NCBI GenBank assembly: GCA_945957385.1
Contig: CAMFKP010000002.1
Coordinates: 50,458 to 114,457 of the forward strand
Source of the DNA: an uncultured Aeromonadaceae bacterium
Lineage (GTDB): Bacteria; Pseudomonadota; Gammaproteobacteria; Enterobacterales; Aeromonadaceae
Reading direction: 5' to 3'
Length of the DNA: 64,000 nt
In this document: piece by piece, positions 35,744 to 40,533 of the stretch
How the letters are laid out: every line of letters begins with the position of its first letter
Position numbering within the stretch: the first letter of the stretch is position 1
Notes under the pieces: generated by a model
Told to the model about the DNA's origin: nothing
Seen by the model: only the letters and a program-made list of their open reading frames with translations
Database searches by the model: none
Made by a program: the position numbers and the translations under genes

Positions 35744-35795
35744 ACTAAAACGTTTGTCTTTTGCGGTCGACATCACATCGGCAGCTTCCTATAAT
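35744..35795 (+). promoter_or_regulatory. purL promoter with PurR-like box
   Basis: ACTAAAACGTTTGTCT (35744-35759; core AAACGTTTG) followed by TCGACA-17-TATAAT (35767-35795) and a GC-rich discriminator. Confidence 0.75.
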
Positions 35796-35841
35796 ACGCG
35801 CACTTCCACATCCCCCCCTTAACTTGGTGAGAATTGGTAAC

Positions 35842-38800
35842 ATGGAAATCTTACGAGGTGCCCCCGCTTTATCCGGCTTTCGTGTCAGTAAACTGTTGCG
35901 GAGCTTTGAAGAGATGGGGCTACCCATCAGGGACCTGTATGCCGAGTTCGTTCACTTCGCCGACTTGTCGGCCGAGCTGGATGACGCGGCGCGAGCGACA
36001 CTGGGCAAGCTGTTGACGTACGGCCCCACCATCGCAGAACACGCTCCTACTGGTCATCTGTTCCTCGTCACCCCCCGTCCCGGCACCATCTCCCCCTGGT
36101 CTTCCAAAGCAACTGACATCGCCCACAACTGTGGTCTGAACCAGATCCTGCGTCTGGAACGCGGTATTGCTTACTATGTGATTGCCGATGCGCTGGATGC
36201 CGAACAACGCCGCCAGGTCGCGGCGCTGCTGCATGACCGCATGATGGAGTGCGTGTTTGATTCGCTGCCGGCCGCCGCAGCCCTGTTCTCGCACCATGAG
36301 CCGGCGCCACATACCGTGGTCGACATCCTGACCGGCGGTCGTGCTGCGCTGGAACAGGCCAACATCCAACTGGGGCTGGCGTTGGCGGAAGATGAAATCG
36401 ACTACCTGGTCAGCAGCTTCACCCGTCTGGGGCGCAACCCGAACGACATCGAGCTGTACATGTTCGCCCAGGCGAACTCCGAACACTGCCGTCACAAGAT
36501 CTTCAACGCCGACTGGACCATCGACGGCGTCAAGCAGTCGAAGTCGCTGTTCAAGATGATCAAGAACACCTTCGAGCAGCACAGCGAACACGTGCTCTCG
36601 GCGTATAAGGACAACGCGGCCGTGATGGTCGGCTCCGAAGCCGGACGTTTCTTCCCGAGTCCGGAGACCTTCGAGTACGAATACCATCAGGAGCCGATCG
36701 ACATCCTGATGAAGGTGGAAACCCACAACCACCCGACGGCGATTTCACCGTTCCCGGGCGCAGCCACGGGGTCAGGCGGCGAAATCCGCGACGAAGGTGC
36801 CACCGGTCGGGGCTCCAAGCCGAAGGCCGGTCTGTGCGGCTTCAGTGTCTCCAACCTGCGCATCCCGGGCTATGAGCAGCCGTGGGAAACCGACTTCGGC
36901 AAGCCGGGCCGCATCGTCACCGCCCTCGACATCATGATCGACGGTCCGCTGGGAGCGGCGGCGTTCAACAACGAATTTGGTCGCCCGAATATCCTTGGCT
37001 ACTTCCGTACCTATGAAGAGCGGGTCGCCAGCCACAACGGCAGCGAGATCCGCGGTTACCACAAGCCGATCATGCTGGCCGGTGGTCTGGGTAATATCCG
37101 CCGCGAGCACGTACAAAAAGGGGACATCCCGGTCGGCGCCAAGCTGATTGTGCTGGGGGGCCCGGCGATGAACATCGGCCTGGGTGGCGGTGCCGCTTCG
37201 TCCATGGCCTCCGGCCAGTCGGCCGAGGATCTGGATTTTGCCTCGGTACAACGTGATAACCCCGAGATGGAGCGCCGTTGTCAGGAGGTGATCGACCGCT
37301 GCTGGCAGATGGGTGAAGACAATCCGATCGTCTTTATTCACGACGTCGGCGCCGGTGGCCTCTCCAATGCGATGCCGGAGCTGGTCAACGATGGTGGTCG
37401 CGGCGGCCGCTTCGAGCTGCGCAAGGTGCCGAATGACGAGCCGGGCATGAGCCCGCTGGAGATCTGGTGTAACGAATCCCAGGAGCGGTATGTCCTGGCG
37501 GTGGCGCCGGATCAGCTGGCCCGCTTTGAAGAGCTGTGCCGCCGTGAGCGTGCCCAATACGCGGTCATCGGTGAGGCGACCGCCGAGCAGCATCTGACGC
37601 TGGCCGACAGCTACTTTGGCAACCAGCCCATCGATCTGCCGCTGGAAGTGTTGCTGGGCAAGCCGCCGAAGATGCACCGCGATGTCAAACGTCAGCAGGC
37701 ACAGGGCGAAGCGCTGCAGCTGGACGGCACCAGCGTCAAGGATGCGGCCGAACGCATCATGCGCCTGCCGACTGTTGCCGAGAAGACCTTCCTGATCACC
37801 ATCGGTGACCGTACTGTGACCGGCCTGGTGGCGCGCGACCAGATGGTCGGCCCGTGGCAGGTTCCGGTCGCCGATTGTGCCGTCACCGCCGCTACTTACG
37901 ACACCTACGCCGGTGAGGCGATGTCGATGGGTGAGCGCACACCGGTGGCGCTGTTGAACTTCGGTGCCTCGGCGCGTCTGGCGGTGGCCGAGTCGCTGAC
38001 CAATATTGCGGCGACGCGCATTGGCGATCTGAGCCGCATCAAGCTCTCCGCCAACTGGATGGCCGCAGCGGGTCACCCGGGTGAAGATGCCGGTCTGTAT
38101 GAAGCGGTCAAGGCGGTCGGTGAAGAGCTGTGTCCAGAGCTGGGACTGACGGTGCCGGTCGGCAAGGACTCGATGTCGATGAAGACCCGCTGGCAGCAGG
38201 ATGGCGAACAGCGCGAGGTGATTGCTCCGTTGTCGCTGATCATCACCGCCTTTGCTCGTGTCGAAGACGTGCGTGGTACTGTCACGCCGCAACTGCGCAC
38301 CGACAAGGGTGAAAGCGATCTGATCCTGATCGACCTGGGCAATGGCAAGAACCGCCTCGGCGCCTCCTGTCTGGCGCAAGTCTACAAGCAGCTCGGTCAG
38401 CAGACGCCGGATGTCGACAATCCGGTGCAGGTGAAGGGTTTCTTCAACGCGATCCAGGCGCTGGTGGCCGATGACAAGCTGCTGGCCTATCACGACCGCT
38501 CCGACGGTGGTCTGTTCGTCACGCTGGCCGAGATGGCGTTCGCCGGCAAGACCGGGATCACGGTCGAGCTGGATCAGATCGGCAGCGACAACCTGGCCGC
38601 GCTGTTCAGCGAAGAGCTGGGGGCGGTGATCCAGGTGCGCCGTGCCGACAAGGAGTCGGTGCTGACCCTGCTGGCCGGTCACGGCCTGGCGGCGTGCACC
38701 TATGTCATCGGCGCGCTCAATGGCGAGGATGTGCTGCGCTTTACCCGCGACGGCAACGAAGTGCTGTGCGAAAGCCGCGTGCACTTCCGCACCCTGTGGG

Positions 38801-39732
38801 CCGAGACCACCCATCACATGCAGGCGCTGCGTGACAATCCGGCCTGTGCCGAGTCCGAGTTCAAGGCCAAGTTTGACGCCGCCGACCCGGGCCTGCATGC
38901 CAAGCTGAGCTTCGATCTGAACCAGGATGTGGCGGCACCGTTTATTGCCAAGGGCGCCCAACCGCGCATCGCCATCCTGCGTGAGCAGGGCGTCAACTCG
39001 CAAAACGAGATGGCGGCGGCGTTTGACCGTGCCGGTTTCAGCTGCATCGACGTGCACATGAGCGACGTACTGAGCGGCCGTGTGCAACTGGCGGACTTCC
39101 AGGGCCTGGCGGCCTGTGGTGGTTTCTCCTACGGCGATGTGCTGGGGGCCGGTGAGGGCTGGGCCAAGTCCATCCTGTTCAACTCGCGGGCGCGTGACGA
39201 ATTTGCCGCCTTCTTCCAGCGCAACGATACCTTCGCCCTCGGCGTCTGTAACGGTTGCCAGATGATGTCGAACCTGCGGGATCTGATCCCGGGGGCCGAG
39301 CTGTGGCCCCGTTTCGTGCGCAACGAATCCGAGCGTTTCGAGGCCCGCTTCAGTCTGGTCGAGGTGCAATCCTCGCCGTCGCTGTTCTTCGCCGGCATGG
39401 CCGGTTCCCGCATGCCGATCGCCGTCTCCCACGGCGAAGGGCGGGTTGAAGTGCGCGATGCGGCCCATCTGGCGGCGATCCAGGGCAGTGATACCGTGGC
39501 GGTGCGCTTCATCGACCACTACGGTGCACAGACCGAGCGCTATCCGTTCAACCCGAATGGCTCGCCGCAAGGCATCACAGGTCTGACGACCCGTGATGGC
39601 CGCGTCACCATCATGATGCCGCACCCGGAGCGCGTGATGCGCACCGTGGCCAACTCCTGGCATCCGGATGAGTGGGGCGAAGCCAGCCCGTGGTTGCGCA
39701 TGTTCCGCAACGCCCGCGTCTGGCTGGGCTAA
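35842..39732 (+). CDS. purL: Phosphoribosylformylglycinamidine synthase (large PurL)
   Basis: [70 protein letters not shown]; ATG at 35842. Confidence 0.98.
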
Positions 39733-39751
39733 GCGCCGCGCCGCCTTGTCG

Positions 39752-39779
39752 AAGCCCCCTCTGCGAGGGGGCTTTTTTT
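39752..39779 (+). terminator. purL terminator
   Basis: AAGCCCCCTC-tgc-GAGGGGGCTT-TTTTT. Confidence 0.9.
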
Positions 39780-39814
39780 ATGCGTTTGTCGCTACGCCCA
39801 CATGGCGTCTGGCG

Positions 39815-39967
39815 GGATTATTAAGTTTCATTTAATAATCCGTGCCGTTGGTTAGCGCTTTTTTCGGGTAATCGTCGGGGCGGTGGCTCCGGCATGCTAT
39901 TACCGCCGGATTATTAAGTTTGATTTAATAATCCCTTCCATCTATTAGTGCTTTTTTAGCGGAATCG
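39815..39967. repeat. Two direct copies (93-bp period) of an approximately 60-bp unit containing a perfect 27-bp palindrome
   Basis: GGATTATTAA-gtttcat-TTAATAATCC (39815-39841) and GGATTATTAA-gtttgat-TTAATAATCC (39908-39934); each is followed at the same offset by TTAGYGCTTTTTT and AATCG. Confidence 0.9.
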
Positions 39968-40035
39968 GCGCGGCCGCGCTGAACGGAGGTGCGGCGCCGT
40001 CCGCGGCGAGGGGCCGCGCAACGGCTGGGCTGGGG

Positions 40036-40533
40036 TTATTGACTCAGGCGGCGGGTCTGACTGTAGGTCTTGCGCCAGTAGGGATTGTCGAGGCTGGAGA
40101 TGATCACCCCCTTGCTGGTGGAGGCGTGCAGAAACTGCCCCTGCTGCAGGTAGATGCCGACATGGCGGCTGAAGCGACCGGTATTGAAGAACAGCAGGTC
40201 ACCAGGTTGCCGCTGTCCGCTGCGCACGGCGACGCCAATCCGTGCCTGGCCGTCGGTATCCCGTGGCAGTTGCAGGCCAAACTGCTGGCGAAACGTAATC
40301 TGCACGAAGGCCGAACAGTCGACCCCGTAGCGGCTGGTGCCGCCGGTGCGGTACGGCACGCCGCGCCACTGGCCATATTGATCGAGCAGCGCGGCACGGA
40401 CCGCTGCCGGTGAACCGAGCCGACTGCTGATTTCCGGCTCTCGCTGGCCGGATGGCGTCTGGCACCCGGCGAGCCATAGCAGCAGGAGACAGGGTAACAG
40501 GCGCTTGATCCAGTACATGGTTATCGCATCCAT
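40036..40533 (-). CDS. NlpC/P60 family cell-wall endopeptidase lipoprotein (MepS/NlpC-like)
   Basis: Lipobox LAGC; WRGVPYRTGG, DCSAFV, GDLLFF, HVGIY, FLHAS catalytic motifs; the start may be ATG 40518. Confidence 0.92.
   Translation of the reverse strand: MDAITMYWIKRLLPCLLLLWLAGCQTPSGQREPEISSRLGSPAAVRAALLDQYGQWRGVPYRTGGTSRYGVDCSAFVQITFRQQFGLQLPRDTDGQARIGVAVRSGQRQPGDLLFFNTGRFSRHVGIYLQQGQFLHASTSKGVIISSLDNPYWRKTYSQTRRLSQ

Follow-up and report, generated by a model that had tools for sequence, protein, structure and literature searches.

What purpose could two near-identical palindromes serve in a gap between two converging genes? The question is raised by a 64,000-nucleotide stretch of an uncultured Aeromonadaceae bacterium (assembly GCA_945957385.1, contig CAMFKP010000002.1, positions 50,458 to 114,457; here called the window), in which the palindromes lie between purL, encoding phosphoribosylformylglycinamidine synthase, and a gene for an NlpC/P60 peptidoglycan endopeptidase. 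An earlier note on this DNA had weighed a recombination site, a protein-binding array and tandem RNA hairpins. The palindromes are two of about 29 dispersed repeats of ~60–63 bp that are restricted to one lineage, and with moderate confidence we take the conserved content of these repeats to be the operator of a CrgA-like LysR-type transcriptional regulator (LTTR).

The palindrome GGATTATTAA-N7-TTAATAATCC is present twice with the same arms (GGATTATTAAGTTTCATTTAATAATCC and GGATTATTAAGTTTGATTTAATAATCC), the two copies being 93 bp apart from start to start. No third copy exists in the window, even at ≤3 mismatches, and 100 shuffles of the window yielded not a single match. A common flank, TTAG(C/T)GCTTTTTT-N5-AATCG, begins 12 nt after each palindrome (39853–39874 and 39946–39967), and an inverted repeat, GGCGGT...ACCGCC, separates the two copies. 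The gap is convergent, since the upstream gene purL is on the plus strand and the downstream NlpC/P60 gene on the minus strand, and both palindromes lie 3′ of the purL terminator. In all these respects the description in the earlier note is borne out. It had also pointed to an asymmetric 7-bp core; the cores do differ and are asymmetric, but the G/T asymmetry is best read as GT-NNN-AT, in which one strand forms a 12-bp stem with a G·T wobble around a variable 3-nt centre.

The genome to which the window belongs (Pseudaeromonas sp.; 4.03 Mb in 133 contigs, 55.5% GC, with gene calls outside the window taken from a crude open reading frame (ORF) scorer) contains 27 exact copies of ATTATTAA-N7-TTAATAAT. 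A profile search of the genome brought the total to 29 units, two of which have one or two arm mismatches, and found no flank-only or decayed copies. As compared to these counts, a reversed control pattern gave no match at 0 mismatches and two per strand at 2 mismatches. Each unit of ~60–63 bp has the layout (n)GATT(A/C)C, ~5 nt, AAAAGCACTG, ~13 variable nt, (C/G)G-ATTATTAA-(G/A)T-NNN-A(T/C)-TTAATAAT-C, so that an A-run/GCACTG box forms a second conserved box between the GATT(A/C)C box and the variable nucleotides. The downstream motif that the earlier note had seen shared by the two copies is this flank, read on the opposite strand. The units end abruptly: similarity stops on both sides, even for copies with 89% identical flanks, and its two ends are short inverted copies of each other, GGATTA...TAATCC. 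Target-site duplications were looked for and not found: at none of the boundary offsets did a duplication of 2–6 bp rise above chance. The idea that the flank contains another small hairpin was rejected, such a hairpin being inconsistent among the copies.

All of the units are intergenic, and their orientation shows no bias with respect to the neighbouring genes or GC skew. A second side-by-side pair, 105 bp apart, is found at C5:11755/11860 (contig:position). The 7-nt core occurs both ways round relative to the flank (GTTTGAT 7 versus 5, GTTTCAT 4 versus 3), and since the same core variants stand in both orientations, the centre and its G/A asymmetry flip as a block. Such flipping is known from small inversions in hairpin loops. 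At one orthologous site the core is flipped between species (C31:16593 versus L095), and no flip was seen among seven sites in metagenome strains of 99% identity.

The family is confined to two species. Pseudaeromonas sharmana CCUG 54939 carries 16 exact copies, and in nine other species of the genus the palindrome is absent except for one copy on a contig of genome G006. G006 belongs to a different species (its purL is 84% identical), yet this one contig (L107, G006:C185), which carries its sole copy, is 98–99% identical to C39:3-2413; it looks like bin contamination or recent transfer. Neither 13 genomes from other genera of the family nor 16 from other families of the order contain the exact palindrome, bar two matches in one genome that do not resemble the repeat family. 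The flank pattern gave only chance matches in 30 genomes of the bacterial family outside the genus, and a search for flank-only relatives in 40 family genomes gave only chance matches inside genes. Viral contigs, phage records and plasmid records contained nothing related, and the seven metagenome matches are all contigs of the same species at ~99% identity.

The purL–nlpC spacer is ~60–150 bp in most relatives (G001–G004) and holds different insertions in others, and the element is present in none of them, which places the insertion of the units in the common ancestor of both repeat-bearing species. In other members of the genus (L115 in G007, L117 in G008, L118 in G005 and L113 in G009), the gap has been filled independently by other repeats, among them tandem copies of AAATCCGTTCGCCCTGAGC(C/T)TGTCGAAGGGAGCTTGT... 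in G008 and CCCTCCCCTTGAACAAGGGGAGGG-type palindromes in G007. Intergenic repeats have repeatedly landed in this gap. An attempt to define the ends of the element by comparison with empty sites failed, as intergenic DNA is too diverged among the available species.

Orthologous comparison revealed how unevenly the unit evolves. In P. sharmana, 14 of the 16 copies have an ortholog in the present genome, with both flanks syntenic, and the remaining copies here have either a P. sharmana ortholog with one or two mismatches or nothing recognisable. Over the 14 ortholog pairs, the arms with their G/C clamp are 98% identical and the GT/AT positions 93%, as compared to 62% in the centre, 72% in the flank and ~55% outside the unit. 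At the divergence of the flank, neutral retention of the 16 arm bases would be expected at ~0.5% per site. Furthermore, the states of the orthologs are bimodal, either perfect or gone, and compensatory drift in the arms is never seen. The window illustrates both outcomes: at the P. sharmana site orthologous to unit 1 the palindrome is perfectly conserved with only the centre altered (C to G), and the position orthologous to unit 2 holds a strongly decayed copy, GGCTGATGCCGTGCAATGTAGTCATCC. Because the arms are 98% identical while the flank and the surroundings have fallen to 72% and ~55%, and because sites are perfect or gone, this pattern argues for sequence-specific constraint, presumably exerted by a protein, and not for mere maintenance of a hairpin or recent spread.

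Which protein might this be? The unit at C34:8499 abuts the Shine-Dalgarno (SD) sequence of a LysR-family gene (C34:8531–9442; Pfam HTH_1 and LysR_substrate), which is divergent from a gene for a Flavodoxin_2 NAD(P)H quinone reductase (C34:7847–8410). The centre of its palindrome lies ~100 bp from the ATG of the reductase, which is the classic geometry of an LTTR recognition-binding site (RBS). The P. sharmana ortholog of this unit has the same location between lysR and its divergent target, whereas the window copies and the other ~26 are not so placed. The flank at C34:8499 also carries a plausible lysR promoter, TTGATT-17 bp-TAAATC, from which transcription would begin at the palindrome, and this is conserved in P. 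sharmana. When the flanks of the family were inspected by eye and scanned for sigma-54 and sigma-70 promoters, no consistent hexamers were found, and only this lysR-linked copy was plausible.

Among solved structures, the one closest to the regulator is that of the meningococcal LTTR CrgA (3HHG). CrgA represses its own gene and activates the divergent quinone reductase gene mdaB, and its 63-bp footprint contains two T-N11-A motifs (PMC2724274). In general, the stretch of 50–60 bp occupied by an LTTR pairs a recognition site with an activation site close to the −35 element (PMC2724274). The units have a matching design. A T-N11-A dyad, TTAAGTNNNATTTAA, lies inside ATTATTAA-N7-TTAATAAT, in the same format as in the boxes of orthologous regulators, and the ~60–63 bp of the unit include a one-sided flank of 36 bp.

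The same box recurs at orthologous loci. We compared eight orthologs of the regulator, with 47–53% identity. All six that have a Flavodoxin_2 neighbour (in Vibrio maerlii, V. owensii, Shewanella, Plesiomonas and two metagenome contigs) bear a single ATTRTTAG-N7-CTAAYAAT box immediately 5′ of lysR, and the two that lack this neighbour bear none; only one stray match occurred in 28 kb, at 2 mismatches. The Shewanella box, ATTATTATGATTTAGCTAATAAT, has 16 of 23 positions in common with the unit palindrome, and the dyad ATTATTAA-N7-TTAATAAT departs from the foreign consensus only at the innermost arm position. The arms of unit 1 in the window match these operator boxes. The foreign operators also have TTGAT(A/T)A 32–36 bp upstream, at the position of the GATTAC of the units, and a T(A/T)AG that aligns with the A-run/GC box. 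By this alignment, the GATTAC box of the flank may correspond to the −35 element of the lysR promoter in the parental operator, and the A-run/GC box to its activation-site region.

The regulator has changed along with its box. In the recognition helix, the eight more distant orthologs aligned have PPSVSQ/H/N, and PAAVSL occurs only in the two repeat-bearing species; this change accompanies that of the box from TTAG/CTAA to TTAA/TTAA. Within the genus, a close ortholog of the LysR protein is found only in the two repeat-bearing species, whose two proteins are 80% identical. When units were ranked by similarity of their flanks to the foreign operators, the two lysR-linked copies came first and second of 41, a weak indication of the likely source copy, and one from two copies that are not independent of each other. 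At C86:6990–7012, a dyad look-alike with 2 mismatches, AGTATTAAGTGGAGCTTCATAAT, overlaps the start codon of another LysR-family gene. It lacks the flank of the family, the protein is 34% identical to the C34 regulator, and the look-alike is probably that regulator's own box.

Taken together, these comparisons are consistent with the following scheme. The palindrome would be the recognition-binding site of the LTTR, a T-N11-A dyad, and the 36-bp flank would combine its activation-binding site with the −35 region of the lysR promoter. The copy in the lysR/Flavodoxin_2 spacer on C34 would be the parental, vertically inherited one, from which ~28 further copies dispersed to intergenic regions in the common ancestor with P. 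sharmana, with a preference for harmless convergent gaps. An LTTR oligomer could sit on each unit, a first dimer contacting the palindrome and a second the flank, and selection for sequence-specific binding would then hold the arms invariant while the surroundings drift. At purL–nlpC the units have no promoter and no gene to control, and they would form two adjacent high-affinity decoy or architectural sites that regulate neither neighbour. The window units have no sigma-70-like promoter, and neither neighbouring gene begins at the gap; the two are most likely orphan sites of high affinity. Their 93-bp spacing, close to nine helical turns, would bring the two dyads onto the same face of the helix; that a single oligomer bridges them is speculation. 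The protein-binding array of the earlier note thus becomes the reading we favour, with a LysR-type regulator as the likely binder in place of a chromosome-organisation protein.

Several alternatives compete with an amplified LysR operator. The units could be a selfish hairpin, similar to repetitive extragenic palindromes (REPs) or miniature inverted-repeat transposable elements (MITEs), copied by an unknown transposase acting on single- or double-stranded DNA, in which case the lysR copy is just another insertion and its likeness to an LTTR box a coincidence. Such an element would be expected to be discrete, dispersed, sharp-edged and purely intergenic, as the units are, to be enriched in convergent gaps, and to leave side-by-side copies such as those at the window and on C5. 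The occurrence of the core in both orientations with the same variants suggests hairpin-mediated flipping, the stem runs slightly past the arms (mean run 1.73 versus 1.28), and the unit ends form an inverted repeat. However, the only Y1/RAYT (REP-associated tyrosine transposase) gene, at C56:2796–3086, is bordered not by this palindrome but by a classical REP of its own (GC-rich, GTAG type), no IS110-family transposase exists in either species, the units have no target-site duplications, and neither solitary half-sites nor split palindromes flank any insert. Association of the units with the RAYT and targeting in the manner of IS110 and dRS3 were rejected on these grounds. The RAYT-like gene, on the minus strand and encoding 184 aa, lies within C56:2300–3700 with GTAGGTTGGGCTGAGCTGGCGAAGCCCAACGTTTACCGCG on both sides; this classical REP (GTAGGTTGGGCTGAGC...GCCCAAC) is distinct from the unit family and forms a separate REP–RAYT system. 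At orthologous sites, the sequence of the arms outlasts that of the flanks, for which selfish spread alone is insufficient, and orthologous LysR promoters of other orders carry the same arms once, at the same spacing and position. We consider a purely selfish origin unlikely. It is less likely still that the units serve another DNA-binding protein, be it a lineage-specific nucleoid-associated or partition-type protein engaged in chromosome organisation or an XRE or TetR repressor. Constraint on the arms suits such a protein, and some 30 copies of a perfectly kept 23–27-bp dyad dispersed over many contigs resemble the matS, SBS and NBS types of site sets. Sites for chromosome organisation are usually kept family-wide together with their protein, whereas the units are limited to two species, have a one-sided flank, behave as a discrete repeat and show no orientation bias with respect to GC skew. 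To our knowledge, no convincing match exists to the sites of IHF, Fis, NagC, HapR/LuxR or P22 c2, or to matS, SBS, parS or Ter boxes, as judged by eye. No candidate for such a protein has emerged, whereas the LysR link provides a specific one.

RNA elements and recombination sites fare worse. Were the units small RNA genes, 5′ stabiliser hairpins or terminators, the G·U wobble would mark the transcribed strand; the RNA hairpin is indeed ~1–2 kcal/mol more stable on one strand (−10.9 versus −8.8 for copy 1, −10.4 versus −9.3 for copy 2), and a T-run lies ~20 nt past the hairpin on the plus strand. A terminator was rejected, because the T-run stands 20 nt away from the hairpin and is not preceded by a GC stem. 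An Rfam scan of the gap gave sub-threshold noise only, the region contains no sigma-70-like promoter and no terminator besides that of purL, and most units lack a promoter even under relaxed rules. Which strand carries the wobble does not follow the neighbouring genes, the flank or the direction of replication in any consistent way, several units lie past the terminators of both neighbours, and the stem is invariant in sequence and never covaries. The units thus have the marks of neither an intrinsic terminator nor a small RNA, and the proposal of tandem hairpin-plus-U-tract RNA units, for which no Rfam family, promoter or terminator fits, is very improbable. The earlier note had named as its refutation a common, dispersed REP-like terminator hairpin in the genus, and this holds in part: the palindrome is indeed dispersed, yet it occurs in only two of 12 species and forms no terminator hairpin. 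As for site-specific recombination of the Xer, lox or att type, in which a tyrosine recombinase would bind the arms and exchange strands across the 7-bp core and the twin copies would act in attachment or resolution or be left as scars, the architecture of 10-bp inverted arms around a 7-bp asymmetric spacer fits. In addition, one unit (C13:5173) adjoins xerD (C13:5316–6200), 121 bp upstream, and another (C15:32360) lies in an unusually long 409-bp gap between xerC (C15:31054–32007) and yigB; both are conserved in P. sharmana, and the uncorrected chance of the two is ~2e-4. This adjacency is possibly a coincidence, and we treat it as unexplained because the canonical dif of the genome, TATTCGCATAATGTATATTATGTTAAAT at C16:12712, has arms unrelated to the palindrome. 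A genome with about 29 such sites scattered in both orientations would be prone to recombine, yet at 14 of them both flanks remain syntenic between the species. The cores differ among copies, even within the window pair. Units adjoin just two of the 14 integrase-family genes, the housekeeping xerC and xerD, and none of the 12 other, phage-type integrases. Phage, plasmid and viral collections hold no related sequence, and relatives without the element carry no island at purL–nlpC. Neither a match of the arms to a resident recombinase, nor an adjacent integrase other than xerC and xerD, nor any evidence of exchange was found, and we regard recombination as hardly credible.

Some observations weigh against an amplified LysR operator as well. 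About half of the copies in this genome have no recognisable ortholog in P. sharmana, and the constraint is therefore not universal. Outside the box, the flank resembles the foreign operators weakly and over short runs. The co-occurrence of regulator and repeat rests on a single clade and therefore amounts to one evolutionary event. Convergent gaps make up nine of the 26 host spacers, as compared to an expectation of 14–17% (p = 0.006 to 0.03), which looks like selfish or neutral insertion and not like a regulon. Nor do the neighbouring genes share a functional theme (purL, purH, flagellin, mnmE, mutY, ridA, xerC, xerD and others); a regulon was rejected for this reason, the neighbours being unrelated housekeeping genes. 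The orphan sites are kept intact with no evident reason, target-site duplications are missing, and we know of no mechanism that copies a 60-bp operator.

A bolder version of the proposal would have the full CrgA-like footprint of ~63 bp copied to ~28 extra sites, with the dyad kept invariant for longer than the species split, the orphan sites serving as a titration buffer, a roadblock or architectural elements, and the 7-bp centre flipping by hairpin-mediated inversion. In this entirety we regard it as doubtful. If true, it would represent an amplification of bacterial regulatory sites that gives a pathway-specific regulator a quasi-nucleoid-associated role, and the boundaries of the unit would coincide with the footprint of the protein.

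The interest of the family does not depend on this version. Dispersed intergenic repeats of bacteria are usually ascribed to a transposase, as in REP–RAYT systems and MITEs, or left unexplained, and here the core of a small, lineage-restricted family appears traceable to the operator of one identifiable regulator, which gives a concrete candidate binder. If the LysR protein occupies ~30 sites, most of them without a target, the birth of transcription-factor site sets would become a testable question in the culturable P. sharmana CCUG 54939, as would whether decoys buffer the dosage of the regulator and why orphan sites are under purifying selection. For annotation, a false lead is removed, in that the purL–nlpC palindromes are not an attachment or resolution site.

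The features of the locus are collected in Table 1. In purL, the family alignment starts at residue 28, and the true start may thus be near 35842. No intrinsic terminator is recognisable 3′ of the NlpC/P60 gene, and its transcripts may therefore read into the units. The GC-rich stretch past unit 2 (39968–40035) contains a perfect palindrome, GCGCGGCCGCGC.

Table 1. Features of the purL–nlpC gap and the adjoining genes, in window coordinates
Feature	Position	Strand	Remarks
purL (phosphoribosylformylglycinamidine synthase)	35761..39732	+	NCBIfam NF003672, 2222 bits; longest ORF
purL intrinsic terminator, GC-rich hairpin followed by a T-run	39751..39782	+	Kept in P. sharmana
Unit 1 palindrome, GG-ATTATTAA-GTTTCAT-TTAATAAT-CC	39815..39841	.	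T-N11-A dyad; putative LysR recognition-binding site (RBS)
Unit 1 one-sided flank	39842..39874	-	Minus strand reads CGATTACCCGAAAAAAGCGCTAACCAACGGCAC; from family alignment and anchored comparison with LysR operators
GC-rich inverted repeat, GGCGGT-N17-ACCGCC	39879..39907	.	Outside the repeat family; poorly conserved in P. sharmana
Unit 2 palindrome, GG-ATTATTAA-GTTTGAT-TTAATAAT-CC	39908..39934	.	Second copy
Unit 2 one-sided flank	39935..39967	-	Minus strand reads CGATTCCGCTAAAAAAGCACTAATAGATGGAAG
NlpC/P60 peptidoglycan endopeptidase (MepS-like)	40036..40533	-	Convergent with purL; protein 93% identical to that of P. sharmana

How does the family compare with known systems? It shares with dif, pdif and loxP the inverted arms of ~10–13 bp around an asymmetric spacer of 6–8 bp, and differs from them in arms unlike the genome's own dif, in many dispersed copies with differing spacers, and in the lack of any sign of exchange. 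With REP/BIME and REPIN–RAYT systems the units have in common that they are short, palindromic and intergenic, biased towards 3′ ends and convergent gaps, sometimes clustered, and of long-lived vertical descent. However, the stem is AT-rich and perfect, where a REP is a GC-rich imperfect palindrome with a 5′ GTAG; no cognate RAYT gene is flanked by the unit, and the copy number is low. Of the features of a MITE, only the 6–7-bp similarity of the GGATTA/TAATCC ends is present, with no duplication. Neisserial dRS3 elements also have short conserved inverted arms around a variable core, next to repeat segments and in arrays, but their arm sequences are unrelated to those of the units. Correia elements carry a site for a host protein (IHF) together with promoters (PMC3184786). 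As compared to dRS3/NIME and Correia elements, the units are accompanied by no IS110-type integrase or filamentous prophage, and have neither long terminal inverted repeats nor a target-site duplication.

A canonical LTTR operator resembles the unit in its T-N11-A dyad and one-sided extent of 50–60 bp and, for the lysR-linked copy, in a position that would overlap the lysR promoter upstream of a divergent target. It is normally single-copy, whereas here there are ~29 copies, mostly with no target, and the perfect 10/10 palindrome is invariant in all. The closest precedent is the meningococcal REP2 (CREN) and its link to CrgA, a likeness that is drawn from the description of REP2. The latter repeat has ~26 intergenic copies and no terminal inverted repeats, and includes the promoter of crgA and of other co-regulated genes (PMC3184786). 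In both cases a dispersed intergenic repeat takes in the promoter of a LysR regulator, the regulator here has CrgA as its nearest solved relative, and the regulator gene is divergent from a Flavodoxin_2-type quinone reductase gene (mdaB in Neisseria). The units differ in layout from REP2/CREN, which is ~120–150 bp long, includes a promoter, ribosome-binding site and ATG, and stands upstream of genes. The units of ~60 bp have no conserved SD sequence or ATG after the palindrome, occur in any orientation, are mostly promoter-less and are enriched in convergent gaps. They are shorter than REP2 and placed mostly with nothing to regulate, and keep a perfect dyad.

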